In this document: positions 3,391-55,351 of the stretch, in pieces | Layout: every line of letters begins with the position of its first letter | How positions within the stretch are numbered: the stretch's first letter is position 1 | Source of the DNA: Candidatus Nomurabacteria bacterium | Lineage (GTDB): Bacteria; Patescibacteriota; Minisyncoccia; Phycocordibacterales; SBAW01 | Length of the DNA stretch: 64,000 nucleotides | Direction: 5' to 3' | Assembly (NCBI GenBank): GCA_943349945.1 | Contig: CALQZS010000001.1 | Location: 213,739 to 277,738, forward strand | Program-made: the position numbers and the translations under genes | The notes under the pieces: generated by a model | Databases searched by the model: none | Told to the model about the DNA's origin: nothing | What the model saw: the letters and a program-made list of their open reading frames with translations, nothing else

Positions 3391-5136
3391 CTAGTCCTGT
3401 CCTGCCACTTTGAGCACCTCGTCTATACTGGTTAAGCCTTGCGCAGCCTTGACCACCCCATCCCCCACCAGCGAAAATAGCCCGGACTCTTTTGCTGCCT
3501 CTTGGAAAAGCGCTGCATCAGCTTCGCGCAAGATAAGCTCCTTGAGCACAGCGGAAGTTGGCCACACTTCTTGTAGCCCCAGCGCGCCGCTGTAGCCGCC
3601 TTTGCACTGACCACATGATTTTGCAGTAAAAAACGCGACATCCTTCCATAGTGCTTGGCTGTCGATTTTGTTTTCTGATTTTAAAATAGCGAGCACCTGG
3701 CCCAAGTCGGCATGCGTACTTATTGCATCCATTTGTGCGCGGCCCAGCCTGTGTTGTTCGTTGTTTGGGCAAAGTTTGGGCACCACCGCGGTACCCACAA
3801 CGCAGCGTAGCGCAGAGGCAAGCAACAGCGGCGGCACACCAAGCGTCAACAAACGCTCCAAACCTGCAGCAGCAGACGACGCCTCTATTGCCGCCAACAC
3901 CAGCACACCACGATTTGCCGCCTCGGCGGCAAGCAGCGCCGTGTCGGCATCGTGCAAGTTGGAAACCATCACCACGTCCGGGTCTTGGCGCAGCGCCGCG
4001 CGCAACGCCACCCCAAATGTAAGCCCCATCTCAGGCGCAACAGCTGTTTGTGTTACAAAGGGAAGATACATCTCTATAGGGTCTTCCACTGAGGCAATAC
4101 TTGCCCCGCGGCCGCCAAGCATGTCGAGCAGCGTGTACAACAAGGTGGTTTTGCCCGACTGCCGCTGGCCCGCCACCAACACCAACCCAGACTTAAGCGA
4201 CAGCGCTTGGTGCAACTCGTCGCGTGCTTGCGTGTGGAGCCCTAGCGACTCCAACGTAAAGCCCCGACGACCTCCCTGCTCGGACACCAGCTGCAACACC
4301 ACCTTTTCCCCCGAGGCACCGCCGACCACAACAGGCACCGTGGAGACACGTACCGAAACCTCTGCATCGCCCACCGCTACGCGGAACCTCCCCTCTTGAG
4401 GCAGTGTTGTGCTGAGCGACAACTGGGCCAGCTGTTTGAGCCGCGCCGCAATGCCCGCAAATGCGGCCTTGGGTAATTGCATAGCATCATAGAGCGTCGT
4501 CCCTATCCGGTAACGAAGTAGGAGCCCTTGTTCGCGCGGCTCTAGGTGGACGGCGCTCGCGCCTTGGTATAGCGCGTGGCCAATAAGCGCATCCACCGCG
4601 GAGCGAGTATGCAGACGCTCGGCAAGCACGCCAGGCGTCGCTGCGTCAGCCGCCACAGCGGCTGCATCACGGGCAATATGTGCGCCAAACTGTTCTTTGA
4701 GGTGCCGCTGGTAGTGCAAAAGCGCGCGGGTCATAGACTCGCGGTCGGTCAGGCGAGGCGCGATTTTGTATTTTGTATGTAAATGCAGCTGTTCGAGCGC
4801 AGACAAGTCGGCAATATCAAGCAGCGCCACCTCAAGCACCTCGCCGCGAAGCGCCAAGGCAACCAAACTGTGCCTCCGGGCAAGTGGCTCGGGCACCATA
4901 GCCAGGGCATCGTGCGCAATTTCGTTTGGAGTAAAGCGCACAAAGGGTAGTCCGAGACCACGCGCCATCGCGCGCCGCACCTCATCCTCGCCCAGCGCAC
5001 CCGTCTCGACCAGCACCCGCGAGAGCGGTGTGCCCGACGTCTCTGCTAGCCGCAGTGCAGCATCCAACTGCGAGCGAGACAGCAGCCCCGCGTCGAGTAA
5101 AAAATCTCGCAACCGCTCTTCTTCTGCGTACATCAC
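3391..5136 (-). CDS. GspE/PilB-family type II/IV secretion ATPase homologue with degenerate catalytic motifs
   Basis: 581 aa; GspII_E N-domain; Walker A GQRQSGKTT; Asp box VEDPIE; Walker B region LRQDPDVVMVSNLHD (canonical DPDVIMVGEIRD; catalytic Glu replaced by Asn); His box replaced (LVLAAIEAS instead of LVLSTLHTN); only partial tetracysteine (CGQC retained). Confidence 0.75.
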   Translation of the reverse strand: MMYAEEERLRDFLLDAGLLSRSQLDAALRLAETSGTPLSRVLVETGALGEDEVRRAMARGLGLPFVRFTPNEIAHDALAMVPEPLARRHSLVALALRGEVLEVALLDIADLSALEQLHLHTKYKIAPRLTDRESMTRALLHYQRHLKEQFGAHIARDAAAVAADAATPGVLAERLHTRSAVDALIGHALYQGASAVHLEPREQGLLLRYRIGTTLYDAMQLPKAAFAGIAARLKQLAQLSLSTTLPQEGRFRVAVGDAEVSVRVSTVPVVVGGASGEKVVLQLVSEQGGRRGFTLESLGLHTQARDELHQALSLKSGLVLVAGQRQSGKTTLLYTLLDMLGGRGASIASVEDPIEMYLPFVTQTAVAPEMGLTFGVALRAALRQDPDVVMVSNLHDADTALLAAEAANRGVLVLAAIEASSAAAGLERLLTLGVPPLLLASALRCVVGTAVVPKLCPNNEQHRLGRAQMDAISTHADLGQVLAILKSENKIDSQALWKDVAFFTAKSCGQCKGGYSGALGLQEVWPTSAVLKELILREADAALFQEAAKESGLFSLVGDGVVKAAQGLTSIDEVLKVAGQD

Positions 5137-5180: not shown

Positions 5181-7649
5181 CTACTGTTCGATATAACTTG
5201 GAAGCAAGTTCACCACTGCGCTTGCAGAGTTAGACCCGTAGGCATTGGTACAGGTGAGGGTGAAGGTAGTCTGCGCATCCAGGGGACCAGAGTCTACATC
5301 AGCGCCAGAGAGTGCCGTACTAGAGAATCCGTTTTGTCCGGTTACGGAACATGAGATTGCGTCGGTAGTAGACCAGTCGAGTTTGGTGGACGTATCTTTA
5401 CGCACACGCGTTGGGTCGGCACTAAGAGAAATAGTTGGCAAACATTGCGTGTCTGATGGTGCTGCGACACTACAGGAGCCGTTGCACATCACCGTACCAG
5501 AACTTGTTTGGCCACAGACGTTTGCGCCGGAAGTGCATGAGTTGCCGTAGGTGGCAGGCACAGGTGGCACCGTTGCCGAGCAATTGCAGCCCGAGTCGTA
5601 AGTACCAGTGGCATAGTTGCAGGCATTTGAAACACTACAAGCAGCTCCAACGGTGCAGGCTGCCGTCACATTCACATCGGTCCATCCACCACAGTTGTTT
5701 GCTTCGTTTGACTCGGCAATGACACCTACGGTGTCGCCGCTATAGGATTTGTCGGCACAGACGCGGATGCCGTAGGTGCCAGCTGCAGGGAAGGTGTAGG
5801 ACTGGGTAGCTATGCCACTACCCCACGCAGTCAAGGCAGACATGTTGGAAGCAGCTAGGTCGGTGATGACCTCTGCAGCGTGGGCGATGTTAAAGAGTTT
5901 GGTAAAGATGTTATGTGGAGCAGTGGCTGTGGTGTTGCTGCGTACTTGGTAGAAGTTTTGGAAGCCAATGTTGGTAGAGCCACCTCCTGTGTTGGTGACT
6001 GTGGCAGAGAAGGTGGTGGGGGTGCCTGCAACTGCACTAGTAGGGGTGATGCCCGAGACCGTGAGGTCTGGGGTACCTCCACAAGAAAAAACAGGTGTAT
6101 TACCAGAAACATTCCAGTTTACAGGGTCCCCGGGGTGCACCCACGCGCTATACAAAGCGTTTGGGGTGGTGGGTACAGTTATGGATGTGCCAGAGTAGTT
6201 GTCTATATAGCAAACACGGGGATCCGCACTCCATGACGTCCATCCGCTTGCGCAGCTCTCTGTAGTTGGTCTGTAGTAGCGTGGATAGAATTTGGTAGCA
6301 CCAGCTGGCGTTGACCATGAAAGGACTGCGGATGTTCCTCCAGCGTTACAAGAGGCGGTCATTGTAGGGGCTGTGAGTGCCGTACAAGAAAACGATGACA
6401 TGTTTGCTGTCCAATTTACTGTACCGCCTACATTAGTGTGCACCCAAGTAGAATAGGTAACACCAGGAGTGATGCCCGAAAGGTAAGCGTAGGTTTCTGC
6501 AATATTATCTTTGTAACAACCGTATTCCCAATGTGTCCACCCAGCAGGACACGAAGAAAGGTTAGCGCTTACTCGCGGATAATAGGTAGCGCCAGAGACA
6601 GGGCTCCATGAGAGCGTAACGCCAGTACCACTTCCATCACACGCCGCATACACTGATGGATTACCAGCTGCTGGCGGCGCACATGCGCCATCCCCTGCGC
6701 GCAAGTACTGGTACTGTACTGGGCTGGTGTTGCTGTACTGCCACCATTGCCAGTTGTTGCCGTTGGGGTCGCTGCCGCCAGTACAGTAAGGGGTCCAGGT
6801 TATTGCAACCGGAGCTGGTACAACGTAGTACGTACGCTGACTCAATGGTGTACCCCAACTTGCACCATCATATCCAGATACAGAGAATATATATTCTCCT
6901 ATTGGCAAGTTGTACACTAAATTACCATTAGAATCTGCGACAGGGCCGTGGATATTTGCCCCTCCTTGCCACCAAGAGGTACCCGCCGCTTGCACAACTG
7001 AATATTGGGCATTTTGTGTACTCCAGCTTACCGTCGCTTGGCAAGTAGTTGCACCCGGAGCAGCGACACAAGGGCTGCTTGGATAGACAGAGAGGTTCCC
7101 GCTTACTTGAGCGGCTGGTTGGTTTGCCGGCGGCGCACAACTGACCGCAGTAAAGGAGTATCGTTCGTATGTATAGCCAGAGTTATTGCCCAATACCCAA
7201 ATCTGGTACCCAGCACCTCCGGTGAGAAGGCTTGAAAAAGACGACGACCCCGAACAAGGTACGCTGGAACCGAGAGATTGTACGAAGTTGCCCCCACCGT
7301 CGTGCAAGTTTATCCGAAGGCTACTGTCGCCGTTACTTTCACAACTAGGTGAATGACCAGATGCCGCTGTTTCGTTCCAAGAAAAAGATAGGTTGTTGCG
7401 CCCAGACCCATCACAACTAGGCCCTAAACTACCAAAACATGCAGCAACCCCCTGCCCTAGGCCAATTTGCTCAGGAGCCAAACTCACCACAGAAGCACGT
7501 TCTGATACAAACGCACCTGCAAAAACTAAACAAAAGGCAACAGTAGCCCCCGCCGCCATAAACTGTGGCTTTTTTATCAAAACAGAGGGGCGTACTATTT
7601 GCAGGAAAACTTTTTTACTGCGCTGCAAATATGTATTAAATTTTGTCAT
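5181..7649 (-). CDS. Large secreted cell-surface protein with FN3-like and CARDB-like Ig-fold repeats; Cys/Trp/Gly/Ser/Thr-rich
   Basis: 822 aa; hydrophobic signal-like segment MAAGATVAFCLVFAGAFV (alternative start at 7559); motifs GVTLSWSPVSGATYYPR (FN3-like), DLTVSGITPTSAVAGTPTTFSATVTNTGGGST (CARDB-like); two tandem ~75-aa internal repeats (YYPRVSANLSSCPAGWTHWEYGCY... / KFYPRYYRPTTESCASGWTSWSADPRVCY...). Ends 4 nt from the upstream TPR gene. Confidence 0.6.
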   Translation of the reverse strand: MTKFNTYLQRSKKVFLQIVRPSVLIKKPQFMAAGATVAFCLVFAGAFVSERASVVSLAPEQIGLGQGVAACFGSLGPSCDGSGRNNLSFSWNETAASGHSPSCESNGDSSLRINLHDGGGNFVQSLGSSVPCSGSSSFSSLLTGGAGYQIWVLGNNSGYTYERYSFTAVSCAPPANQPAAQVSGNLSVYPSSPCVAAPGATTCQATVSWSTQNAQYSVVQAAGTSWWQGGANIHGPVADSNGNLVYNLPIGEYIFSVSGYDGASWGTPLSQRTYYVVPAPVAITWTPYCTGGSDPNGNNWQWWQYSNTSPVQYQYLRAGDGACAPPAAGNPSVYAACDGSGTGVTLSWSPVSGATYYPRVSANLSSCPAGWTHWEYGCYKDNIAETYAYLSGITPGVTYSTWVHTNVGGTVNWTANMSSFSCTALTAPTMTASCNAGGTSAVLSWSTPAGATKFYPRYYRPTTESCASGWTSWSADPRVCYIDNYSGTSITVPTTPNALYSAWVHPGDPVNWNVSGNTPVFSCGGTPDLTVSGITPTSAVAGTPTTFSATVTNTGGGSTNIGFQNFYQVRSNTTATAPHNIFTKLFNIAHAAEVITDLAASNMSALTAWGSGIATQSYTFPAAGTYGIRVCADKSYSGDTVGVIAESNEANNCGGWTDVNVTAACTVGAACSVSNACNYATGTYDSGCNCSATVPPVPATYGNSCTSGANVCGQTSSGTVMCNGSCSVAAPSDTQCLPTISLSADPTRVRKDTSTKLDWSTTDAISCSVTGQNGFSSTALSGADVDSGPLDAQTTFTLTCTNAYGSNSASAVVNLLPSYIEQ

Positions 7650-7652
7650 ATA

Positions 7653-8453
7653 CTACTTCTTTGCTTGAGCTAGAGATAAATTTGCCTCTATTGCAGCTTG
7701 GAAAGCTTTGATGCTTGCCTCTATCGAGGCTGGGTCGTTGCCCGAATATGCTCGGTGCCATTGTTTTGGGGTCACCTCGCGAGCCAACGCAAGAGCTTGT
7801 GTAAAAGAAGCTTCCGCGTCTACATAGTGTAACCTGTTTAATTGCGCCAACCCCAAAGAATTCCACAACCAGGGGATATCTTTTGCCTCCGGTACTTTTA
7901 TAAAAGCATCTTGGATAACAGCTTCTGATTCTGTGTACTTGCCCTCTTTGGCTAATACGAATGCCAAATCGTTGTATCCACCCCACTCTGCAGGCGCCCA
8001 AGCAACAAAATTTCTAAAATCCTCCTCCGCTGCAGACAGGTTGTTTAGACTTATATACGTAAGCCCGCGCACATATAGGGAGCGTGGGTTGTAGGGGAAC
8101 AAAATTAATTCTGCATTGATATGTGCGAGCGCTCTATCAAGCTGGCCGTCCACAAAATAGATACGCGCCAGCTGGTAGCGCACCAATTGCGTCGCCGGGT
8201 CCAGCTGCAGCGCCAGTTCATATGACGCGGCAGCTTTGCGCAAGTTGTATTCCCCACCGCCAAAGTAGTAGTTGCCTAGTTGCGCCGCCAACGCGGCATC
8301 TGAGTGATTGAGGTAGTACGCAGCCGTTGGTGAGTGAGTATATACAAAACTGGCCACAAACTTTTGAAACGAAGGCGGCGCAACCCACCAAACTACCACC
8401 AAAAGACATAGGGCAAACAAAAATAAGAAAGCGTATGTGCGGCGGCGCATCAC
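7653..8453 (-). CDS. Membrane-anchored TPR-repeat protein
   Basis: 266 aa; N-terminal TM (AFLFLFALCLLVVVWWVA); TPR-like repeats (YELALQLDP..., ARIYFVDGQLDRALAHINAEL...). The annotated start is GTG; an ATG follows 3 nt later. Confidence 0.65.
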   Translation of the reverse strand: MMRRRTYAFLFLFALCLLVVVWWVAPPSFQKFVASFVYTHSPTAAYYLNHSDAALAAQLGNYYFGGGEYNLRKAAASYELALQLDPATQLVRYQLARIYFVDGQLDRALAHINAELILFPYNPRSLYVRGLTYISLNNLSAAEEDFRNFVAWAPAEWGGYNDLAFVLAKEGKYTESEAVIQDAFIKVPEAKDIPWLWNSLGLAQLNRLHYVDAEASFTQALALAREVTPKQWHRAYSGNDPASIEASIKAFQAAIEANLSLAQAKK

Positions 8454-8550
8454 ACTACCTAGTGTACGCTATATATCAGCAACAAAAAGTGGAAAACTAC
8501 AAATGAGAAGACCCAACGCCGCGAGTGCAACGTTGGGTCTTGTGCCGGAA

Positions 8551-8841
8551 TCATCCGGACTTCGAGGACAGGCTCTGCGTAAGGACCTGCGCCAGGCCCT
8601 TGGCATAGTCTGCGGCGTTCGCCGCGTCGAGCCCCATGTTCTGGTCGGTGTACGACCCGACACGGAGCCCGTCGATGCGCGCCTGCTTCAGCGTGACTTC
8701 CGCCACCTTGGCGCGGTTGAGCGCCGCGTCGCAGACGAGGTCCTTCTGGCAGGCCGCCCGCTCGTCGAAGCTCAGCTCCTGGCCGAGTGCGGGGCCGGCA
8801 AGCGCGATCATGATTACAAAGAAACGTCCGATATTACGCAT
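8551..8841 (-). CDS. Small secreted protein (signal peptide) in a high-GC patch
   Basis: Start MRNIGRFFVIMIALAGPALG-QELS...; GGAGG RBS 5 nt upstream; high GC; a 174-aa ORF on the opposite strand (8437..8961) is judged a GC artefact. Confidence 0.5.
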   Translation of the reverse strand: MRNIGRFFVIMIALAGPALGQELSFDERAACQKDLVCDAALNRAKVAEVTLKQARIDGLRVGSYTDQNMGLDAANAADYAKGLAQVLTQSLSSKSG

Positions 8842-8896
8842 AACAACCTCCATTGGATGTTTCGGTGCGTCCCACCTTGGGCCACCAATACATACT

Positions 8897-8925: not shown

Positions 8926-9055
8926 GTATTTTGTAGCGACCCAACATCCAAGAGGTATTGACTTTTATATAATAAAAGTGTCAAGTAACCTTTAGTTGCA
9001 ACCCGTTCCTTCCCGCCTTGGGCGGCATAGGACCACATACCAGTCGAGGTATCCA

Positions 9056-9475
9056 ATGATTAAAGTGTTCTTGTTGGCGGCTCTCACTGCGCTATCCCCT
9101 TCCACACTTGTAGCGCAGTCAAAGGAAGTGCCGAAACAGTGTCGGGCGGCCTGGACAATCACAGACGACCCAAGCAAGCGGCACGAGCGCAACACTGGAG
9201 CAGGTCTTGTTGATCTGCTCCAGAAGCGATACTACTCCAAGCCAGGCATAGAGGCATTCCATAGCCCACCAGAAAGCGGCTCTGGGTACGTATACTCAGT
9301 CCCAATTGTCGTGGAAGATTTACCGAATGGAGGTAAGCAATTTACCTTCAATCGAAAGAACGACAATGCGTTTGTAATCGGCACCCTGCATCAAATTCCG
9401 GACGGCCGATGGGAAATGGCACTTTCAGTACAATTGCTAGGATACGTAACGGCAACTGGCCTTTGTATCGAGTAG
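9056..9475 (+). CDS. Small secreted protein (signal peptide)
   Basis: Start MIKVFLLAALTALSPSTLVAQ (ATG at 9056 within the longer 8996 ORF); no recognisable domain. Confidence 0.5.
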   Translation: MIKVFLLAALTALSPSTLVAQSKEVPKQCRAAWTITDDPSKRHERNTGAGLVDLLQKRYYSKPGIEAFHSPPESGSGYVYSVPIVVEDLPNGGKQFTFNRKNDNAFVIGTLHQIPDGRWEMALSVQLLGYVTATGLCIE

Positions 9476-9609: not shown

Positions 9610-9678
9610 AAAGCCAGTTGTAACACGGCACATTTTCCCATTTGGGAAGGCGTGAGTAACATAGCAAGGAGAAAGTAC

Positions 9679-10152
9679 ATGCGTATTTTGTTCGCACTTA
9701 GCATGCTGTTGCTCCCGAGCCTCTCTTGGGCGCAGCAGTACACACCGATCCCCAAGGGGAAGCAGTGCTTTGCACTGCTCGGAGAAGAGCGCGCCCCGCC
9801 CGGAGTGGCGACAATGAGCCCATCCACCGTTCCTGGTCGAGGTTCCGTCTTGATGTCGTTTGAAGAAAACGGCACCGTTCGGCTCTACTTCAAGCGCTCG
9901 ATCGACCCGTACAATGCGGCATTAAGCGGAAAACCTTTCAATGAAGTCGCCCGGTCAATGATAGACCGGGGAAACCGTCCCATCACTCAGATGGACCGCT
10001 GGCTTTCATTCGACCACGGCACAGCGGATCCGAGCAACGAACAAACGTACCAGGTTACCATAGGGCCAGATGGTGGCCCTCTCGGGCGAGCGATTTCTCG
10101 CAACGGGCAATTCTCGGTAACCAAACCACTATGTCAGTCCAAGATCGGCTGA
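9679..10152 (+). CDS. Small secreted protein (signal peptide MRILFALSMLLLPSLSWAQ)
   Basis: ATG at 9679 with AAGGAGAAAG Shine-Dalgarno; consensus promoter upstream; no recognisable domain. Confidence 0.55.
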   Translation: MRILFALSMLLLPSLSWAQQYTPIPKGKQCFALLGEERAPPGVATMSPSTVPGRGSVLMSFEENGTVRLYFKRSIDPYNAALSGKPFNEVARSMIDRGNRPITQMDRWLSFDHGTADPSNEQTYQVTIGPDGGPLGRAISRNGQFSVTKPLCQSKIG

Positions 10153-11589: not shown

Positions 11590-13023
11590 ATGGGCCGTGT
11601 TTTTGAATATCTTCAAGTGGTATTGTTCAAAAAAACTCTTTCACGGTACGCAAAACTACTTCCAAAAGATTTTTTCACAACTACCACTACTAAAAAAACT
11701 GAATTATATAAAAATTTACTACGTGCAGAAATAGAAACAATTAAACAACTCCAAAAAGAAGAGTTTGAATTTGTCAAAAAAATACAACTTCTTCGCTTAA
11801 GAGAAGTGCTTGTGTTAGCCGCACAGACAAGGTGGTGGAACAATTACTTTCTGCAAAAGAAAGTTGCTTGGAAACGTATTGCTACTTTTGATGACTTACA
11901 AACTATCCCACCTATCACCCGCAACAATATTGTGGATGTAGAAAAAAAGGACCTTCTACTACTAGAGGCTAACGACCCCTCATTACTGTGGCGCAGCTCC
12001 AGCGGCAGTACGACAGGCACCCCTGTCGTGTGGGGTTTAAATAAAACAATTCTAATCTTAAACGTATTAGCAAGTTTATTAATACAACTCGAAAAAAGAG
12101 GTTTTTTACTTAGCGCAAATCTGAATCATAAATTTTGCCTCCACTACAATATGTTTATGACAGCCGACAAGCATGCTTTTAAATGGTTTGCTCAACCGGA
12201 CTTCCATATCCCCAACCACAGCAGTGACCGTCGTAAAAAAACTATAGAGCTAAGTTTAATTATTGCTCAAACGCAAAATCTAGTCCTTTTTACCAGTCCT
12301 AACGAATTAATTTCCCTGGTAGACTCTTTTAGAGATATTGGCGATCGACCCCATATACCTTTTATTATTACAGTTGGCTCTCCGCTACCTCCACACGTTC
12401 GTGACACCACAACGCAGTACTTCCACTCTCAAATATTTTCTTTCTACGGCGCACAAGAAACAGGACCCTGTGCAATAGAGTGCGTAAACGTTAAGGACGC
12501 CTATCATGCATTATCAGACCGAATAATTTTAGAGCTCCTTGATGAACACAATCGGCCCGTAAAAGAAGGCGAAGCGGGATTAATTACCGTAACCTGTCTG
12601 GACAACACCGTTATGCCACTTATCCGATACCAACCAGGTGACTGGGGAGTGTTCGTTTCTAACTCTCTGTGCACATGCGGCAATCACTTTCCTTTATTTA
12701 AAGTACTGGAGCGCACCACCGACGTGGTTACTTTTAGCACCGGAGAGCGTCTGTCTATAGTCCCAATTTTAAGATTTTTTAACAGACCTCCTTATATTTC
12801 TTTTGTGAGGCGCTTTCAGATCGAACAAGATCGACACGATCACATCATTGTGAGACTTGAAGTTAAAAAACTATTATCTGAAACCGCCATAACTAGACTT
12901 CACGAAAGAGTTGGGCGTATTTTTAAAGGCAAACTTCAGGCAGATGTTGTGCAAACCACAAACCTTACGCAAGAAAACCCAAAATTTAGAGTATTTATAC
13001 CCTTAAAAACACCGCGACCTTAA
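11590..13023 (+). CDS. PaaK/CapK-like adenylate-forming enzyme (phenylacetate-CoA ligase superfamily)
   Basis: 477 aa; AMP-binding P-loop-like SSGSTTGTPV; strongly AT-rich compared with flanks. Confidence 0.5.
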   Translation: MGRVFEYLQVVLFKKTLSRYAKLLPKDFFTTTTTKKTELYKNLLRAEIETIKQLQKEEFEFVKKIQLLRLREVLVLAAQTRWWNNYFLQKKVAWKRIATFDDLQTIPPITRNNIVDVEKKDLLLLEANDPSLLWRSSSGSTTGTPVVWGLNKTILILNVLASLLIQLEKRGFLLSANLNHKFCLHYNMFMTADKHAFKWFAQPDFHIPNHSSDRRKKTIELSLIIAQTQNLVLFTSPNELISLVDSFRDIGDRPHIPFIITVGSPLPPHVRDTTTQYFHSQIFSFYGAQETGPCAIECVNVKDAYHALSDRIILELLDEHNRPVKEGEAGLITVTCLDNTVMPLIRYQPGDWGVFVSNSLCTCGNHFPLFKVLERTTDVVTFSTGERLSIVPILRFFNRPPYISFVRRFQIEQDRHDHIIVRLEVKKLLSETAITRLHERVGRIFKGKLQADVVQTTNLTQENPKFRVFIPLKTPRP

Positions 13024-14090
13024 TTTACGACTATCCCAAGTTTATCTAAAAAAACTCTAAACTCTGGGGAAATTTTAGCCAGCTTGATTGCTACCATTTT
13101 ATTGAAATTAGTATCAGGAACGTTCTTTAGGTTTGCAAAAAAACGCAACTCCTCTGACAAAGGATCAGCATCTGCAAAAGGCTGGAGAATAGCACGTATA
13201 TCCTCTTCTCTATTCAATTGAGATGAAACAAGATTTGCATTATAAAAACGAGCGCGCCAAATAATTATAGATGGGTTTTTATCTTGTCCTGTCGCTTTAG
13301 CAGTATCAAAAACCAGAGCATAGGCATCTTCTGCCTCTTTTACTGATTCTGCGGGTGATCCGAGCAAGAAAGAAATACGACCCAACGATACAGCTCTGTG
13401 GTAATATCCATGGACAAGAATTGATGGTGAATAAATCGACTCATCGTGGCGAGAATCCCCATCTTTCACATATTTCATCATCATCTCTGCGGTTTCTTTC
13501 GGATCCGCAGCAGTGGGATTACTTACACTTAAAGATGCGTACTGATGCGCAATTGAATATTCTGCCCACGACGTTGGGTATGTATCGTCTGAGTATTTAA
13601 GCAACGCAAGGTATGCAGCGCTGACTTTTTGCGCCTCGGTACCTTCTGCTGGCACAAAGGCATTATATGGAGCTTCGCTAAAGTGAATTTGGTAGAAGGA
13701 TAGACTCGAGTCGTTTACAAAACGGGCAATACTGTTGAGCGCCTGGGCGCGCCACGCAGCAGGTATTGAGTAGTCGTTCACTACTTCTTTTAAGGTTTTG
13801 ATTGCTTGGGTGCGGTCACCGCTTTGGTTTCTAAACCAATAACTCACCCCAAGTAGGATTTTGAGCCGTCCAAATTCTGATTTATTTGGCGCCTGAGCAA
13901 TAAGGGTCGGCAGGTTATTAATGGAAGCCGCATAGTCTCCCGACACAAACGTATCGTACGCAGCCCTAGCATCAGCTTGATATGTGTTGCTTTGTTGAGG
14001 CATGTAAAATCGCATGTAGTATATATACCCGAAAACAACAGCCCCTGAAAGTATTAAGGCGAGCAGTAGTAGAGTGTAACGTTTTCCCAT
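13020..14090 (-). CDS. Membrane-anchored hypothetical protein (AT-rich gene)
   Basis: Start MGKRYTLLLLALILSGAVVFGYIYYM (ATG at 14090 inside the longer track ORF); a single N-terminal TM followed by a large soluble domain. Confidence 0.5.
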   Translation of the reverse strand: MGKRYTLLLLALILSGAVVFGYIYYMRFYMPQQSNTYQADARAAYDTFVSGDYAASINNLPTLIAQAPNKSEFGRLKILLGVSYWFRNQSGDRTQAIKTLKEVVNDYSIPAAWRAQALNSIARFVNDSSLSFYQIHFSEAPYNAFVPAEGTEAQKVSAAYLALLKYSDDTYPTSWAEYSIAHQYASLSVSNPTAADPKETAEMMMKYVKDGDSRHDESIYSPSILVHGYYHRAVSLGRISFLLGSPAESVKEAEDAYALVFDTAKATGQDKNPSIIIWRARFYNANLVSSQLNREEDIRAILQPFADADPLSEELRFFANLKNVPDTNFNKMVAIKLAKISPEFRVFLDKLGIVVN

Positions 14091-14103
14091 AAATATTATC
14101 AGG

Positions 14104-14373
14104 TTAACAAGGACTTTCGCTATCACCAGCACCTTCTGGAGAATCTGATTCACACGCATCACCTTCACCCCCGCCAGCACCAACACCTTCAGCTGATGTG
14201 TTTGTACTGGGGAAGTCTGCATGAGCTGTATTGAGCCCAAAATCTTTTGCCAGTTTTTCCTGTTCTTGTGGGTCAGACTGTGTAAACCTCGCAACCAATC
14301 CACCAAAAAAGACAAGTGCTGTAAGCGCACTGAGTGAAACAAATCGGAGTGATAGTTGTAGTAGGCTTCTCAT
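14104..14373 (-). CDS. Small secreted acidic protein (hypothetical)
   Basis: 89 aa; N-terminal hydrophobic segment, acidic Gly/Glu/Asp-rich C-terminus; 13 nt upstream of the next gene. Confidence 0.35.
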   Translation of the reverse strand: MRSLLQLSLRFVSLSALTALVFFGGLVARFTQSDPQEQEKLAKDFGLNTAHADFPSTNTSAEGVGAGGGEGDACESDSPEGAGDSESPC

Positions 14374-14426
14374 ATATTGTTTAGTGTAGCAGGCTGGCTA
14401 CTATTGAACACCCAACTATCCCCACC

Positions 14427-14912
14427 TTAGTCTTGTGCCGGAATGCGCTCTGTATCCCCCACCACTGGAAGCCCCGCATCTGCCCAGTGGTTTAGCCCAC
14501 CCTCGATACGCAGCAGGTTTTGGAATCCTTCTCGCTCTAAGTAGCCGTAGGCAACCCCGGCCAGGCGCCCCGTCGAGCAAATAAGTACTATTTTTTTGCC
14601 CTTTTTAGGCAATACGGTACGGTCGTCAAATAAGTTTGCTATAGGTTCGCTTATAGAGCCCTGCGCATGGGCAATATCATACTCTCTTTTGCTCCGCACA
14701 TCCAACAGCAAGTATGCATCAGGGTTTTTTTGATAGTCCTCCCAAAAAGCAACAGGGTCGACATCGTGCATTGTTGGCTCAACAAAGTTCATCCACTTAA
14801 GTGGGGTTAGGTAAATAACCGACGCCGCCCCCACCCCGCCCACCAATAGTCCAATAATTAGAAAAAGTGCTGCAGACCAGGTAAAAAGTGTTCGACGTAT
14901 CCACGTAAGCAT
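14427..14912 (-). CDS. Membrane-anchored rhodanese-domain sulfurtransferase
   Basis: 161 aa; N-terminal TM; catalytic loop CSTGRLAG (Cys-x2-Gly-x-Arg); lies 28 nt downstream of ycaO. Confidence 0.75.
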   Translation of the reverse strand: MLTWIRRTLFTWSAALFLIIGLLVGGVGAASVIYLTPLKWMNFVEPTMHDVDPVAFWEDYQKNPDAYLLLDVRSKREYDIAHAQGSISEPIANLFDDRTVLPKKGKKIVLICSTGRLAGVAYGYLEREGFQNLLRIEGGLNHWADAGLPVVGDTERIPAQD

Positions 14913-14940
14913 ACGAAAATTGTATCACGGACAAAAACTT

Positions 14941-16323
14941 TTATGGGAAAGGGTGCGGGTACGTGTTTGTTGGTTCCACCCCACCAAGCACCGGGGTCGA
15001 GAAGCGTTCGTGGAGTGCGAGTTTGTACAACCCTGGTGCAAGTAAGCGCACAGAGTGGAAGCCTACCTCGTCTAGGTACGGCTGCTTTGCTTGCACCACG
15101 CACAGCTGCCCCTTTGCCAAAACCTTAAGCACATCCACTGGATGGTTTGCCTTCTTTTTTAGCAAATCATCAAACAACACTTCCCTGCCTGCCAAAAAGA
15201 GCTCGCCATTTTTTGCTATATGCGCTTGAGACCATGCGTGTATACGCTTAACGTCTGTGATAGAGCGATCACAAAAACCAGCGGTGAGTGTTGTTTCACT
15301 CAATACAGGTGCTTGTGTGTTGTTAGCACCATCCATCGCCCAGGTATATACAGACAAGGCTTCGCACACTGCACGCTCCACAGCCCCGCAGTAGTCCACT
15401 TTTGTGGCCATACCCACAAACCAGCCCAACCCCGGCTTGGTAAGCACTGCAGCAACCGACGGCGTACCGTCTACTAATGTACAGTCCAGCAAGTGAGCAG
15501 TGAAGTCGTATGCAGACACTGCGCGCAATAGTGTTTTTGTGCCCTGCTGTGCCAGCGGGCTTTGCAACACGCTATGCAATGCAATTTTTGGTGGAGCTTT
15601 TTTTGCATACCAATGGGTAAAAAAGCTGTGTCGCTGCAACAGCTCTGACGCACCGCTGAGTACAGCCTCGCCGTATGTATATCCAGCACCAAGGCCATTG
15701 GTATTCATCTCGCCTAGCAATGGCTCGCCCTTTTGTCGCTTGTACCCCCAGTGCAAAAGTTGTGCTGGCACCCACGTAGGCGCCTGTGTAAAAATGTTTG
15801 TTGCTTGCACCCATCCAAAAACAGAGTCCTCGTCCCACACCAAATCAGTAAAGGTCTCTTTCTGCTTCTTGGTTGTTTGTGCCAGCTCAAAGATAGGAAA
15901 CACAGACTCTTTTTGCTCCTGTAATTTTTTGTAGCTTGCATGCACCACCTGTTGCCCAACAGGCACAAACCGCATAGACACGCGTTCGTACAGCTCGCCA
16001 AATGCCCTGGCAACTGCCTCGTCTAAAGACAAGGCTGTCCCTCGTGCAAACACTCGCCCATCTATTGCCCGCAAACCCACATCATAAAAATGCACATTCG
16101 GGGCCAGCTGGAGCGCCCGCGAATAGCCAACTGTTTGGTGTAGAATATTCTGCCTCTGTGCTTGTGCTATCAATTTTTTGTGCGTGTCGGTTGTAGCTAT
16201 GTTCCCCTGTGCCGTAACGCCCGAGAATAGGTGTGTGTCCCGCACCGCGGATACATACTGCGCAAATAACCCACCGGGGGTTTTAAAACGTGTATGAAAT
16301 TCGAGCAACTCGCGGATGTTCAT
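14941..16323 (-). CDS. YcaO-domain protein (ATP-dependent peptide backbone-modifying enzyme family)
   Basis: YcaO ATP-binding motifs ALSLDEAVARAFGELYERVS and NTNGLGAGYTYGEAVLSGASELLQRH; C-terminal PxPxP (PHPFP). The ATG at 16323 overlaps the upstream gene's TGA stop as ATGA (translational coupling); the track start at 16356 is GTG. Confidence 0.8.
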   Translation of the reverse strand: MNIRELLEFHTRFKTPGGLFAQYVSAVRDTHLFSGVTAQGNIATTDTHKKLIAQAQRQNILHQTVGYSRALQLAPNVHFYDVGLRAIDGRVFARGTALSLDEAVARAFGELYERVSMRFVPVGQQVVHASYKKLQEQKESVFPIFELAQTTKKQKETFTDLVWDEDSVFGWVQATNIFTQAPTWVPAQLLHWGYKRQKGEPLLGEMNTNGLGAGYTYGEAVLSGASELLQRHSFFTHWYAKKAPPKIALHSVLQSPLAQQGTKTLLRAVSAYDFTAHLLDCTLVDGTPSVAAVLTKPGLGWFVGMATKVDYCGAVERAVCEALSVYTWAMDGANNTQAPVLSETTLTAGFCDRSITDVKRIHAWSQAHIAKNGELFLAGREVLFDDLLKKKANHPVDVLKVLAKGQLCVVQAKQPYLDEVGFHSVRLLAPGLYKLALHERFSTPVLGGVEPTNTYPHPFP

Positions 16324-17195
16324 ACGTTTTTTTGTTTGTCGGCCAATAAGTAGCACAGCCCCACCAGCACATGCATATGCACGTCGTCTATATATAGTGT
16401 GTTTGGTTGCGAAAGAATGTGCTCGTGGTACTTCCCCAGCGTCTGTTTTGCGTAGTGGCTTGTGGCCCGCTCGTGCAACAGCCGTGTGTAAAGCCGCTCG
16501 ACCAACGCAGCATCGGCCGCATAGTAGGCCAGCACTTCAAACACCTTGCCCACAGGAGACGACCACGCACGAACCCCCGTGTGTAGGTCTTTAAACCAGC
16601 CGTCGGCAGTGTAGCAACTTTCTAAATATTGATACTCCTGTTGAGCCAGCTCTGGTGCCGCACTTTTTGCCCAGACCAGAGTGTCTGCATAATCAAAAAA
16701 ACGACCCTGCCTTGGCGCCAAGCAAAGATTGTACCGCAGCACCTCTTGTAAGTATGTAGTGTGCGGCAGAGGTTTGGGCAGCAGCCCCGAAAGTCGCAAA
16801 TACAAACCCACGGCAATGGGATGCGACAACATATCGGGCACAAGAGCTTGGTGCACTAGTGCAATAGACACCTCTTTTTTTGCATATGCCTCTGCGAGCG
16901 CCGTATACAGCATGATGTAGAGTTTTTGAATGGGAGTTTGCGACTCAAGATTGTCTTGCACATACCGCTCTGACAAGTTTATCTGCTTTTGTATATCCAG
17001 CGTTGGGACAAGTTGTTGCGCAAACATGAGCGCCATGTTTGCCATAGACTGTCGCACAATATCTTTCTTTCTGTCTATAGAATCGGAGACTGTTATGTAG
17101 GAAGGGATCATCCCTTCTGCGTCTTGGGTTAGGAGAATTTTTTCGACATGCCACGCAATACGTGCCTCCAGAGAGTCTCCCGTAACATCTTCCAT
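16320..17195 (-). CDS. Hypothetical protein translationally coupled to ycaO (candidate YcaO partner)
   Basis: 291 aa, largely helical-looking; no recognisable motifs; its stop overlaps the ycaO start. Confidence 0.55.
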   Translation of the reverse strand: MEDVTGDSLEARIAWHVEKILLTQDAEGMIPSYITVSDSIDRKKDIVRQSMANMALMFAQQLVPTLDIQKQINLSERYVQDNLESQTPIQKLYIMLYTALAEAYAKKEVSIALVHQALVPDMLSHPIAVGLYLRLSGLLPKPLPHTTYLQEVLRYNLCLAPRQGRFFDYADTLVWAKSAAPELAQQEYQYLESCYTADGWFKDLHTGVRAWSSPVGKVFEVLAYYAADAALVERLYTRLLHERATSHYAKQTLGKYHEHILSQPNTLYIDDVHMHVLVGLCYLLADKQKNV

Positions 17196-36736: not shown

Positions 36737-37657
36737 TTATTTTCGGCGTTTACCATGAAAGGCTTTGTGGACTTCGTGCAAATGCTTGTCGGTGATGTGG
36801 GTGTACACCTGGGTAGTCGCGATGTTGGAGTGGCCAAGGAGTGCCTGCACCGAGCGCAGATCGGCACCGTTTTCCAAAAGGTCAGTTGCAAAGGAGTGGC
36901 GGATGACGTGCGGCGTGACTTTGCGGGTAATGCCCGCCTTGGTGGCATATTTTTTAACCAAACGCTCGACTGAACGGGGAGTGAGCCGCCCGCCTGAGGG
37001 GGATTTTTCTTTGCTTCCTAAATTGCGGCTCATCTGCACAAACAGCGCGTCATCTATGTCGCCTCGTTTGTCTAAGTACTCTTTTATACAGCGCTTGGCA
37101 GCAGGGGAGAGAAAGACCACACGTACTTTTTCGCCCTTTCCGCGCACCGAAAATTCGTCACGAGAGAGATCTAAGTCGCGGTTGAGGCCGCACAGTTCCG
37201 AGACACGCAGACCCGTAGAAAAAAACAGCTCCAGTATCGCCCTGTCGCGCAAGTCGCTGAGCGACGAACCTTTTGGCCCTTCCATCAAACGCTCCAGCTC
37301 GCCCGCGGTAATAAGGTCGAGGTCGCGTGCGCCAACCTTTGCCAATTCGATACGCTCGGGGTTAAGCGACTCGATACCGCGCTTGCGCAAAAACTTCAAA
37401 AACGCGCGCAGCGAGATCATGTAGTAGTTTTGGGTCTTGTGCTTCATTGTGCCACTCGTGCCTGGCTGGCGGTTGAGGTGCAAACGGAATTCGCGCACCG
37501 TGCGCTCATCGAGCTTGGCAGGGGAGGTGAGTTTAGTGTGGGCCAAAAAACGCGAAAGGTAGCGGTCGTAATTTTCGACTGTTTTAATACTGCGACCTTT
37601 CTCTATCTCTAAGTATTCGAGAAATTCGGTTTTGAGGCTTTTAAGGTCCTGTGCCAT
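36737..37657 (-). CDS. Tyrosine site-specific recombinase XerC/XerD
   Basis: Start MAQDLKSLKTEFLEYLE (ATG at 37657); catalytic region HVIRHSFAT...LLGHSNIATTQVYTH. Confidence 0.85.
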   Translation of the reverse strand: MAQDLKSLKTEFLEYLEIEKGRSIKTVENYDRYLSRFLAHTKLTSPAKLDERTVREFRLHLNRQPGTSGTMKHKTQNYYMISLRAFLKFLRKRGIESLNPERIELAKVGARDLDLITAGELERLMEGPKGSSLSDLRDRAILELFFSTGLRVSELCGLNRDLDLSRDEFSVRGKGEKVRVVFLSPAAKRCIKEYLDKRGDIDDALFVQMSRNLGSKEKSPSGGRLTPRSVERLVKKYATKAGITRKVTPHVIRHSFATDLLENGADLRSVQALLGHSNIATTQVYTHITDKHLHEVHKAFHGKRRK

Positions 37658-37752
37658 GTGTCGCACAATTTTACCATGCACTAGCCACAAATCATGATTG
37701 CTGCTATTTTGGTCCCAGACGAAATACCTCGTCTTGTAGAAGGGAGGGTAAC

Positions 37753-38337
37753 ATGGCCGAGATTGGTCGAGTCCTATGGGTCTGGTTCTGGTACAACCAG
37801 AGACCCATTCCAAGAACGACAACGAGATGGCTGGCCACAAAACTCCTGCTCTGTATCGCAGGGGTGCTGCTGCAAGTTATGACAGTGACCCTGCCAGACA
37901 CAGCAGCATTGGCTATTTTGGTCGGCACCACAGGGATAGTGACCATCTTGTGGGTAACCAAATGTCTCGATGTAGGTTTCCTCACGTGGACAGTGTTTGC
38001 GCTCTCTGCTGCCGGAATTCTGTGGGTGCGTGCGGACGGTTTCGCGCCCATATTTTCATTGATGCTACTCATGTTTGGCGTCATGATCTTCGACATCACC
38101 GGAGGAAAGGCACACAATGAAGCCGTAGAGCGCCTACCAAAACTCACGTTCAGCAGCAATATCAAAACCCTTGTGCCAGGGCCGGCGCTAACCTGCGTCT
38201 GGCTTTGGTTTGGGGGAAACCTGGACTGGTGGCTTGTAGCCCCGGTAGCAGGGTTTTGGTTCTCGGTGGTCCACATCGCACTGCAAAAATTCTTTGATAC
38301 GCAGGACGCACAAGCTGACCCGCACAGACGCATCTGA
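37753..38337 (+). CDS. Polytopic membrane protein (hypothetical)
   Basis: ATG at 37753 (MAEIGRVLWVWFW...); several TM segments; hairpin terminator at ~38360-38390. Confidence 0.45.
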   Translation: MAEIGRVLWVWFWYNQRPIPRTTTRWLATKLLLCIAGVLLQVMTVTLPDTAALAILVGTTGIVTILWVTKCLDVGFLTWTVFALSAAGILWVRADGFAPIFSLMLLMFGVMIFDITGGKAHNEAVERLPKLTFSSNIKTLVPGPALTCVWLWFGGNLDWWLVAPVAGFWFSVVHIALQKFFDTQDAQADPHRRI

Positions 38338-52129: not shown

Positions 52130-52928
52130 TATGTATAAAAAGAAATCTCTCGGTCAACATTTTTTGCACAACCCGCACTATCTCGGGATGCTAGCTGACG
52201 CCGCAGATATACAAAAAAGAGACGCGGTAGTGGAAATTGGCCCCGGCGAAGGAGCGCTCACAAAAGTGCTGCTTGAGCGGGGAGCGCATGTTGTGGCGGT
52301 AGAAAAAGATACGCGACTTATCCCACTACTCTCTGAAAAATTTGCACAAGAAATAAAAAACGAGCAGCTAGAGGTTATTGAGGAAGATGCCTTGCGACTT
52401 AATACAGCAAGTCATTTGAAAAAACACGCAGGAAAATCGTCAAAAAAAGATACCTACAAAGTGGTAGGCAACATACCGTACTACATCACCGGTGCTTTGT
52501 TGCGCAAATATCTAACTGACACCAAGCAACCAGCAACGCTCGTTTTCTTAATACAAAAAGAAGTGGCAGAACGCATTGCGCGTAGCACAAAGGAAAGTCT
52601 TTTATCTCTCTCTATTAAGGCGTACGGTACGCCCACCTATATTAAAACCGTACCGCGCGGAGCATTTAACCCACCACCCGCAGTAGACTCTGCCATTTTG
52701 CTTGTCTCGAACATATCGCGCAAAAACTTTAAAAACAAAAAACACGAAGAGCGGTTTTTTACACTCCTACACGCTGGCTTTGCGCAAAAAAGAAAGCTCC
52801 TTAAAAGAAATATTGAAAAAGTGCTTGGGAGCGACACGGAAAAGGTTCTGCAAGACGCTGGTATCCCACTTAATGCCCGCGCAGAAGACGTGTCTTTGGC
52901 ACAGTGGCTCGCACTTACACTGAACTAA
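52122..52928 (+). CDS. rsmA: 16S rRNA (adenine1518/1519-N6) dimethyltransferase
   Basis: LGQHFL, VVEIGPGEGALT and VGNIPYYIT motifs. Confidence 0.9.
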   Translation: MTDMYKKKSLGQHFLHNPHYLGMLADAADIQKRDAVVEIGPGEGALTKVLLERGAHVVAVEKDTRLIPLLSEKFAQEIKNEQLEVIEEDALRLNTASHLKKHAGKSSKKDTYKVVGNIPYYITGALLRKYLTDTKQPATLVFLIQKEVAERIARSTKESLLSLSIKAYGTPTYIKTVPRGAFNPPPAVDSAILLVSNISRKNFKNKKHEERFFTLLHAGFAQKRKLLKRNIEKVLGSDTEKVLQDAGIPLNARAEDVSLAQWLALTLN

Positions 52929-54461: not shown

Positions 54462-55346
54462 ATGAGTGCGAGATATTTACCCAGTGCACAATTTAGCCTA
54501 TTTGTAGTGTCGTTGGCTATTGCTGGCGGGTTAGTGGTGGCCGCAAACTACTCGACCAAACCAAACACAGCCAACCTGGCAAGCATTACGCCGAGCCAAA
54601 ATCCTACGTATGACTGGCGCGCTGCACTTGGCGCCGTACAAACAGAAAGCGGTATAGAGGCACCCGGCCCCATAGATGCTGCAACCATAGACTCTTTGCG
54701 CGATGCAGCAAAAAACACATCGAGCCTCACCGACGCCGTGTCTCGTACACTGCTTATAAACCTAAGCAACGCCAAAGCACAAGGTCTGGGGAGCGATATA
54801 CCTACACAAAACCAACTAGTCGCAAGCGCAGTGGGGCAAATAGACGCTACGCAACAGGCGCGACTATACACCCGAGCCGACTTGACTGTGGTTGCCGACA
54901 CTTCTGATGCTCAAAAAGCATATGGCAACGCACTCGCAATCGTAATGAGCAAAAGTGGCGGACTTGGGTACGCAGAAACATTGATCGCTATAGATATGGC
55001 CACTGCAAAGAATAGCCAAGCAGAGCTCGAGCAGCTTCCATCTATTGCAACCGAGTATAGCGAGTTATCTAAAGCGCTACTTCGCATACCAGTACCACAA
55101 ACACTTTCACCTTTTCATCTTCAACTTGTAAACAACTTCCAAAAAATTGCCGGGGCATATACACCCATGGCGACAATACTCACGGACCCACTACGCGGAC
55201 TCTCGGCAGTTAAAGACTACCAAGCACTTACCCAAGAAACACTACTTGTGTTTATAAACATCGGACAAACATTACATAAAAACGGTATACTTTTTACTAA
55301 GGACGAGCCAGGGAGCGCTTGGGATGTTCTGGTGTCTGCACAATAA
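54462..55346 (+). CDS. Membrane-anchored hypothetical protein (first gene of the T4SS-like operon)
   Basis: 294 aa; N-terminal TM FSLFVVSLAIAGGLVVAA. Confidence 0.4.
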   Translation: MSARYLPSAQFSLFVVSLAIAGGLVVAANYSTKPNTANLASITPSQNPTYDWRAALGAVQTESGIEAPGPIDAATIDSLRDAAKNTSSLTDAVSRTLLINLSNAKAQGLGSDIPTQNQLVASAVGQIDATQQARLYTRADLTVVADTSDAQKAYGNALAIVMSKSGGLGYAETLIAIDMATAKNSQAELEQLPSIATEYSELSKALLRIPVPQTLSPFHLQLVNNFQKIAGAYTPMATILTDPLRGLSAVKDYQALTQETLLVFINIGQTLHKNGILFTKDEPGSAWDVLVSAQ

Positions 55347-55351
55347 ACCAC

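Follow-up and report, generated by a model that had tools for sequence, protein, structure and literature searches.

An 822-residue protein encoded on the minus strand (5181..7649, stop codon included) of a 64,000-nucleotide stretch of the Candidatus Nomurabacteria contig CALQZS010000001.1 (this whole stretch is hereafter the window) ends in a short conserved tail of the form P-x-Φ-x-E-x-COOH. The domain types of which the protein is built are ordinary; what sets it apart is this tail, which is shared by many exported proteins of the Candidate Phyla Radiation (CPR, or Patescibacteria) and has a statistical link to a gene for a tetratricopeptide repeat (TPR) protein as well as, within one clade, to a type IV pilus operon. 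Members of the CPR are mostly uncultured episymbionts, and apart from type IV pili little is understood of how they attach to their hosts. We conclude that the product is very probably an exported, modular, adhesin-like surface protein. Translation and composition bore out the preliminary description of a Cys/Trp-rich protein of this length at this position: it contains 32 Cys (3.9%) and 23 Trp (2.8%), and Ser, Ala, Thr and Gly are abundant. The identical protein is recorded on 12 contigs, with the metagenome-assembled genome GCA_943353435.1 among them, and ComEC, RecJ and ribosomal genes are found in its neighbourhood, as fits the small genome of a CPR bacterium.

The C-terminal tail and its TPR partner

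Iterative hidden Markov model searches (jackhmmer) over 163 relatives delimited eight modules and a tail in the window protein. The tail, LPSYIEQ, corresponds to residues 816-822 (5184..5204, minus strand), with PSYIEQ constituting the motif proper. In the AlphaFold2 (AF2) model of the protein, which ends in ...LLPSYIEQ, the last strand stops at residue 815 and residues 819-822 have a predicted local distance difference test score (pLDDT) below 50. We noted that 81 of the 163 relatives end exactly in P-x-[FYIVLWM]-x-E-x. Position counts were made on the 109 relatives that contain a CARDB domain, which were chosen without selection on the tail, and these revealed Glu at position -2 in 101, Pro at -6 in 85 and F, Y, I or W at -4 in 92 proteins. 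A C-terminal Φ-x-E-x was seen in 93 of these 109 proteins, as against 3 of the 54 relatives without CARDB. A hydrophobic segment near the C-terminus was encountered in just one of 96 tagged proteins, and in 32 of them the last module recognised before the tail is not the Ig-like one found there in the window protein. Among the plausible open reading frames (ORFs) of the window the tail is unique to the 822-residue protein. We provisionally delineated a family of 'tail-tagged CPR surface proteins', characterized by an N-terminal export signal and a C-terminal P-x-[FYIVLWM]-x-E-x with no transmembrane (TM) segment after it, and the sequence of the window protein displays each of these features; an N-terminal hydrophobic segment likewise occurs in 73 of the 88 full-length relatives that bear the tail. 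The literature searched contains no description of the tail, of the TPR partner or of CARDB proteins in CPR bacteria, which is an absence from those sources and not proof of novelty, and the tail may be a previously undescribed surface-docking signal.

Directly upstream of the surface-protein gene lies a gene for a 265-residue protein (7653..8450, minus strand), which was identified as a TPR protein through its Pfam TPR and PDB TPR matches, with its membrane segment detected by hydropathy. The preliminary description had recognized this neighbour correctly and had placed it 4 nt away; the gap to the ATG is 3 nt. The N-terminus of the TPR protein consists of RRR and a TM segment, from which its TPR domain is predicted to face the outside of the cell. 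A profile of the TPR family run against the PDB recovered the TPRs of Tom70/71 and kinesin light chain among generic TPR matches. TPR orthologues with 44-60% identity occur upstream of the surface-protein gene in L005, L008, L009, L013, L014 and L015, and they show stronger conservation than the surface proteins, in which the middle part is often unrelated from one protein to the next.

Using the TPR family as query, we retrieved 80 further metagenome loci, 35 of which were non-redundant and had a complete downstream gene. The P-x-Φ-x-E signature was detected in the last 10 residues of the products of 23 of these 35 downstream genes versus none of 136 other ORFs that are 200 or more residues long (Fisher p = 4e-20), while the looser Φ-x-E was seen in 27 of 35 versus 12 of 136 background ORFs. 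The downstream proteins fall into 17 clusters, with the strict motif in 9, the loose one in 13 and an N-terminal hydrophobic segment in 15, and many of them share no module with the window protein. The flanks of the pair vary from locus to locus (tpiA-pgk, rpsB-tsf, L31-RF1 or PilB-PilC), and the TPR and surface-protein genes stay together. As judged from gene order, the steadier partner of the surface protein is the TPR protein, and the tail travels with the TPR gene.

TPR domains have a general role in peptide binding, and several eukaryotic, cytosolic TPR receptors bind short motifs: Hop and Tom70 with EEVD-COOH, Pex5 with SKL-COOH and kinesin light chain with W/Y-acidic motifs. The gene pair could be seen as analogous to these, with a TPR protein matched to a short acidic-aromatic candidate ligand near a free C-terminus; however, some tails of the window family extend past the motif, and the likeness is one of generic TPR similarity. 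The tail also resembles the sorting signals of the LPXTG/sortase and PEP-CTERM/exosortase systems and the C-terminal domain of the type IX secretion system (T9SS), in that it is a C-terminal signature on unrelated exported proteins with a linked partner gene. It differs from them in spanning just 6-7 residues with no TM helix or basic tail after it, in matching no NCBIfam sorting model and in having a TPR gene, not one for a transpeptidase, as its partner. A sortase substrate was rejected, with no [LI][PA]x[TSA]G anywhere in the protein and no C-terminal hydrophobic segment, as was a cargo of the T9SS or a carrier of another curated C-terminal sorting domain, an NCBIfam scan of the 822-residue protein having returned no family at e-values up to 0.1.

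Modular architecture of the surface protein

The N-terminal region (residues 1-48; 7506..7649, minus strand) comprises a basic stretch, with 7 K/R and no D/E in the first 30 residues, followed by a single hydrophobic 15-mer at residues 34-48 (Kyte-Doolittle 2.2). The hydropathy scan revealed no second TM-like segment in the protein and nothing hydrophobic beyond residue 80. The signal sequence claimed earlier is therefore seen by hydropathy, and the region is predicted to be a Sec-type signal peptide or a signal anchor. Between 15 and 22 residues past this hydrophobic segment we detected a juxtamembrane motif, (P/W)-E-x-x-G-[LIM]-G-x-[GS]-V-[AP]-A-C, which in the window protein spans residues 59-71 (7437-7475) and which recurs in positional orthologues with unrelated middles. 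It is also carried by P0010, P0054, L017, L019, L064, L071 and L072, and is kept across clades; a shorter form reads G-[LIM]-G-x-x-V-x-A-C, and several proteins encoded downstream of TPR genes have the motif together with module N, the first of the eight modules. Several positional orthologues share the juxtamembrane motif, module N and the tail, thus showing that both ends of the protein are conserved while the middle varies. The lipobox-like VAAC at residues 68-71 was considered as a sign of a lipoprotein and ruled out, since it lies 22 residues beyond the hydrophobic segment.

Module N (residues 60-172; 7134..7472, minus strand, as are all the modules below) starts with the juxtamembrane motif PEQIGLGQGVAAC and forms a divergent FN3-like domain with 5 Cys. 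It is weakly related to the repeat R1 described below (z=6.8), joins the R family in jackhmmer and is 33% identical over 104 residues to its positional orthologue in L071. It is followed by module B (residues 176-280; 6810..7124), a beta-rich domain of the Ig-like type that contains 2 Cys and 4 Trp, for which jackhmmer recovered 67 copies in 41 relatives and whose strands are modelled by AF2 at a pLDDT of about 40-70. The next element is a Trp-rich mini-module, w (residues 281-326; 6672..6809; WTPYCTGGSDPNGNNWQWWQY...GDGAC), which is present in 22 copies in 16 relatives, with 1-3 in tandem in some of them. Neither module B nor module w matches a Pfam family.

Two FN3 repeats, R1 (residues 331-424; 6378..6659) and R2 (residues 427-524; 6078..6371), occupy the center of the protein, each with 4 Cys and 5 Trp. 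Self-alignment confirmed the tandem repeats with Cys/Trp spacing of the preliminary description (Smith-Waterman score 172, z=17.7 over shuffles, about 46% identity), with the 4 Cys and 5 Trp of one copy all aligned to those of the other; each unit is about 97 residues long rather than the 75 proposed. Tandem Repeats Finder did not detect any repeat at the DNA level beneath R1 and R2, suggesting that the duplication is old. The string that had been read as an FN3-like motif, GVTLSWSPVSGATYYPR, lies in R1 at residue 343. The match to Pfam fn3 (PF00041) falls short of the cut-off of 25 bits, scoring 17.4 bits over the whole protein and 19.2 bits when R1 is taken by itself. However, 16 of 45 members of the repeat family do match this model (best E=6.6e-9), and the family profile recovered 36 PDB chains, every one of them an FN3 protein (1fnf at 1.8e-7). 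The AF2 model of R1 attained a pLDDT of 95 and a predicted TM-score (pTM) of 0.84, and in a Foldseek search of the PDB its top 50 matches were all FN3 domains, with TM-scores of 0.52-0.71, most of them 0.6-0.7. By its predicted fold and family profile the R repeat is an FN3 domain, and the earlier claim holds at this level while the Pfam gathering score is not reached by the window protein itself.

The CARDB domain (residues 526-662; 5664..6074) has a Pfam match above threshold (PF07705, residues 526-653, E=1.6e-7, 31.9 bits versus a cut-off of 22.7), which agrees with the CARDB-like segment noted earlier around the string DLTVSG...TNTGGG at residue 528. It exceeds the Pfam model in length by about 27 residues, and AF2 predicts it at a pLDDT of 70-88 outside residues 574-592. 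The latter stretch (5874-5930) is a conserved amphipathic helical segment, NIFTKLFNIAHAAE, common to close family members, which could be a candidate binding or membrane-contact element. Module y (residues 664-737; 5439..5660) contains 10 Cys in 74 residues and corresponds to the Cys-dense C-terminal module of the preliminary description, the strings CNCS, CTSGANVC and CNGSC being located at residues 688, 705 and 722. It was found in 134 copies in 37 relatives, with up to 16 in tandem; it has no Pfam family match and its AF2 model is unconfident. The terminal Ig/PKD-like domain, module I (residues 738-815; 5205..5438), is modelled at a pLDDT of 80-90 and was recovered in 556 copies from 134 relatives, with the copies of one relative matching K319L-like PKD. 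The Cys count is even in every module except N, which is consistent with internal disulfides in these modules.

The full-length AF2 model is poor (mean pLDDT 56), being confident for the CARDB and terminal Ig-like domains only, and Foldseek matched it to generic multi-Ig/FN3 chains alone, with TM-scores of about 0.1, so that no specific homologue could be named. A phmmer search of the whole protein against PDB sequences yielded no match, and neither did a profile of the C-terminal half. Together, the Pfam match, the module map and the Foldseek matches support an adhesin-like architecture in which beta-sandwich domains are strung along an exported protein. The protein resembles other CARDB proteins in having this domain in an extracellular multi-domain context, with relatives containing up to 11 CARDB copies, but is distinguished from them by the longer domain with its conserved helical segment and by the FN3 repeats, Trp mini-module, 10-Cys module and tail, none of which is a defining characteristic of CARDB proteins. 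With the FN3/Ig 'beads-on-a-string' adhesins it shares the FN3 fold, and its full-length model resembles strings of Ig/FN3 domains, an S-layer protein and the grappling-hook protein of Aureispira among them. In contrast to these, each of its FN3 repeats has an additional loop (SCxxGW...C) and 4 Cys that are conserved, and it lacks LPXTG, an SLH domain or any other known anchor of such adhesins and S-layer-associated proteins.

An exhaustive search recovered 2,327 proteins at e-values up to 0.001, ranging up to 4,314 residues in size, and by these profile matches the modules of the window protein are the common currency of a large protein set. The nearest homologue has the module order N-B-R-w-C-y-I (C being CARDB), and other close relatives have the orders N-w-B-C-y-I, N-w-w-w-C-y-I and B-w-C-y-I. 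Module N and the region from CARDB to the end are 85-90% identical between the window protein and its nearest homologue, and the middle is rearranged. Such reshuffling of modules between close relatives is common in host-interaction proteins. A C-terminal alignment scan of the genome collection, which consists of species representatives, returned 3 loci only, and the relatives among these genomes belong to Candidatus Nomurabacteria and Candidatus Saccharibacteria. An exact-sequence look-up of the paralogue P0008 gave no record.

Gene order, the ATPase and the type IV pilus link

Downstream of the surface-protein gene, 47 nt from its stop codon, starts a gene for a 580-residue PilB/GspE-like ATPase homologue with an MshEN N-terminal domain (3391..5133, minus strand), followed on the same strand by tpiA and then pgk. 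Pfam and NCBIfam confirmed this order, including the assignment of the ATPase to T2SSE/MshEN, and the tight packing of the surface-protein gene with the TPR and ATPase genes on either side stands as first described. Co-transcription of the three genes would be expected from their spacing. A scan of the DNA for promoter and terminator consensus sequences gave 8 matches versus 5.8 expected and 14 versus 10.9 expected from shuffles, in neither case better than chance, and did not delimit a transcription unit.

The order TPR, family member, PilB-like ATPase, tpiA and pgk extends to distant relatives, repeating in L004, L005, L009 and L013, with the family member of L005 being 38% identical to the window protein. 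L006 has the same order with an upstream gene that is not homologous to the TPR gene, and in L008 and L014 the TPR and surface-protein genes stand together, with ribosomal or translation genes downstream of them in place of the ATPase. Across 24 loci with enough downstream sequence, a PilB-like gene follows the pair in 9 and tpiA with pgk in 1. One other clade has an intact PilB-PilC-pilin operon immediately after the pair, and the ATPase of this operon has canonical motifs (GPTGSGKTT, IEDPVE, DPDIIMVGEIRD and TGHLVLSTLHTN) and is followed by PilC (T2SSF, E=6.5e-55) and then by N_methyl pilin genes. The window ATPase is 39% identical over its full length to the intact PilB of L071 but is not of the active type: it keeps the Walker A motif (GQRQSGKTT) and the Asp box (VEDPIE), while its Walker B motif reads VVMVSNLHD, with the Glu replaced by Asn, and its His box reads GVLVLAAIEAS, with both His gone. 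All six ATPases of the window clade (window, L005, L006, L009, L013 and L017) are without the His box; five of them have lost the catalytic Glu and two the Walker A motif. They keep the MshEN N-domain, which is of the c-di-GMP-binding type (NCBIfam NF053729, 38.9 bits versus a cut-off of 38), and from these motifs the PilB-like ATPase of the window clade is best described as a conserved pseudo-enzyme.

The window ORFs that were scanned include neither a PilC nor a pilin gene, and none of the genes examined codes for a secretin. Given the intact operon elsewhere, the degenerate ATPase and the lack of PilC and pilin genes here, the module looks ancestrally tied to a type IV pilus operon, with this attachment having decayed in the window lineage; at the comparative level, the link to type-IV-pilus-type machinery is real. 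These observations do not favor the earlier suggestion that the protein is cargo handled by the ATPase, which is cytoplasmic, has lost its His box and catalytic Glu, and is absent beside the gene in 15 of 24 loci as well as in L008 and L014. The accompanying proposal of an adhesin or pilus-tip-like protein stands as regards the adhesin-like architecture, but no pilin features are present, neither a class III signal nor an N_methyl match.

A non-canonical large adhesin, PilX2, has been proposed for the pilus of Saccharibacteria (PMC11623550), and a TPR partner is not mentioned in that paper or in PMC10633639. The window family resembles the non-pilin adhesins of type IV pili (PilY1/PilC, PilX2) in that one CPR clade has the pair immediately upstream of PilB-PilC-pilins, and differs from the PilY1/PilC type in that the window protein has neither a beta-propeller nor a pilin-like N-terminus. 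A PilY1/PilC tip adhesin was rejected as a candidate, with no propeller match in Pfam or NCBIfam and a predicted secondary structure of beta-sandwich-sized units. A pilin or pseudopilin was likewise rejected, with no match to N_methyl (PF07963) and no prepilin-like motif in the first 70 residues; the true pilins of L071 and L038 do match N_methyl. In the pilus-linked clade a conserved protein of about 170 residues, with one TM segment and no Pfam match, is encoded between the tail-tagged protein and PilB (L071 8247-8768, L049 8339-8875, L027 8786-9289).

Interpretation and neighbouring genes

We favor the reading that the window protein is a variable, adhesin-like member of a conserved gene module comprising a membrane-anchored TPR protein, a tail-tagged surface protein and often a PilB-type ATPase. 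The protein would be a disulfide-stabilised rod in the order signal or anchor, N, B, w, two FN3 repeats, CARDB with its helical insert, y, Ig/PKD-like domain and free tail. It would exit the cell via the Sec pathway and fold outside the membrane, whereupon the TPR partner would bind the exposed P-x-aromatic-x-E-x tail as a short linear motif. This binding would retain or position the protein at the surface, ancestrally beside the type IV pilus machine, and which host cell or substrate it binds would be set by the shuffled middle modules. In the window lineage the pilus link would have decayed, leaving the ATPase as a catalytically degenerate relic or a regulator. Taken as a whole, the statement that this is an adhesin-like surface protein whose tail docks on the TPR protein and whose gene module had an ancestral tie to the pilus seems to us evenly poised between being right and wrong; the docking step on its own, for which the genomic association and the general peptide-binding role of TPRs argue, falls a little short of an even chance. 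The broader generalization, that P-x-Φ-x-E-x-COOH is a widespread display or docking signal of Patescibacteria, read by an outward-facing TPR receptor, with the pair being of pilus-accessory origin, is doubtful and offered tentatively.

Several observations weigh against this reading. Tagged paralogues and relatives are also found far from any TPR or ATPase gene (L012, L096), suggesting that adjacency is not required and that another molecule could serve as the receptor. In 4 of the 17 clusters the protein encoded downstream of the TPR gene lacks even the loose tail motif. Some tails run 2-4 residues past the Glu-Φ pair (TFEEISP, IPDFIEVLPQ), which argues against strict binding by a carboxylate clamp. 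If the N-terminal segment is an anchor that stays uncleaved, holding the other end close to the membrane as well would make the protein fold back as a hairpin. Furthermore, the pilus-linked loci belong essentially to two clades and hence point to few independent events and not to a broad pattern, and the putative adhesive role has been assigned from domain types alone.

The tail could instead be a secretion or sorting signal for a machine like the type IV pilus or the type II secretion system (T2SS), or for some processing enzyme, and not for the TPR protein, although we consider this unlikely. It would then direct passage through the wall or S-layer or loading onto the pilus, with the TPR protein acting as an assembly factor like PilF, PilW or TadD. 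The position of the pair before the intact PilB-PilC-pilin operon and the similarity of the window ATPase to the PilB of that clade are both in keeping with such a signal, as are the tagged proteins that lie far from a TPR gene, as the substrates of a shared machine would. Against it, the ATPase is missing near most TPR-linked loci and is degenerate in the window, where no PilC or pilin gene accompanies it among the ORFs scanned, and T2SS substrates are not known to carry a linear C-terminal signal. The weak PilW-type NCBIfam match of the TPR protein could be cited in favor of an assembly factor, but at 40.7 bits versus a cut-off of 154 it reflects generic TPR similarity, and the TPR protein differs from PilF, PilW, Tgl and TadD in having a TM anchor in place of a lipoprotein signal. 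It is also rather improbable that the product is a generic modular or S-layer-associated surface protein, with its gene order inherited without any coupling and its tail being the conserved end of the terminal domain. This would be in line with the abundance of the terminal Ig-like domain and with the occurrence of the tail directly after this domain in 64 of 96 tagged proteins; moreover, many of the loci come from related groundwater and freshwater CPR lineages, whose shared ancestry inflates the counts. However, the tail is kept where the remaining protein is unrelated and follows other terminal regions in the remaining 32 tagged proteins; it is nearly absent (3 of 54) from proteins consisting of Ig-like repeats alone. 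In addition, the pair persists while its flanks differ, and AF2 places the tail beyond the last strand.

A third explanation, in which the Cys-rich protein is the substrate of modifying or redox enzymes encoded upstream (a YcaO protein, a rhodanese and a PaaK-like ligase, with DsbA-like, HTTM/DCC1 and 2OG oxygenase proteins added in relatives) and the TPR protein recruits it to them, appears very unlikely. YcaO is indeed encoded a few kb upstream in L004, L005, L008, L013 and L014 and in 6 of 26 metagenome loci, and a PaaK-like gene in 10 of the 26; DsbA-like and DCC1 thiol-disulfide genes stand beside the TPR gene in L014 and L008, and the rhodanese and a 379-residue protein of the same cluster have N-terminal TM segments. 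Yet the association is partial, at 6-10 of the 26 loci, several of the genes concerned run in the opposite direction, and no modification motif is known in the surface protein. Furthermore, YcaO is cytoplasmic, whereas the domains of the surface protein are predicted to be extracellular.

Were the tail a docking or sorting signal, it would represent a new route of surface-protein display in a major bacterial radiation, and the displayed proteome would be predictable genome-wide from sequence alone. It would be directly testable in the few genetically tractable Saccharibacteria, provided that the module is present in them. A tail of pilus origin that is read by a TPR protein would mean that one short peptide marks much of the surface proteome with which episymbionts interact with their hosts, and would offer a handle for finding and manipulating their adhesins.

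Several other features of the window are of note. A small ORF (8500-8853, minus strand) for a 100-residue product with a signal peptide is located in an island of 67% GC, versus about 50% around it. This ORF has its own promoter-like site at 8925-8897 (TTGACA, a 17-nt spacer and TAAGAT, with a TG) and a 15-bp hairpin (8541-8508) just 5' of the TPR gene; it may have been recently acquired. Beyond it, two small ORFs on the plus strand (8996-9475 and 9652-10152) encode products of 159 and 166 residues, whose N-termini resemble signal peptides and for which neither Pfam nor NCBIfam gave a match; the closest relative, L004, differs in this stretch and carries a FAD_binding_4 gene here. The cluster with YcaO, the membrane-anchored rhodanese, an 89-residue ORF and the 379-residue protein occupies 13020-16356 on the minus strand, with the PaaK-like ligase gene on the other strand (11590-13023). 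The 89-residue product has a TM segment and an acidic, Cys-containing tail, and the 379-residue protein combines its TM segment with a helical region; upstream of the TPR gene elsewhere, the latter was seen in 5 of the 26 metagenome loci. In relatives the cluster is joined by DsbA-like, HTTM/DCC1, nitroreductase and 2-oxoglutarate (2OG)-oxygenase genes, and it could constitute a peptide- or protein-modification or redox system. Farther along the window are a gene for a tyrosine recombinase of the phage-integrase family (36737-37840, minus strand) and three large ORFs of 777, 938 and 497 residues (55319-60455, plus strand, and 52925-54418, minus strand) with no Pfam match at e-values up to 1e-5.

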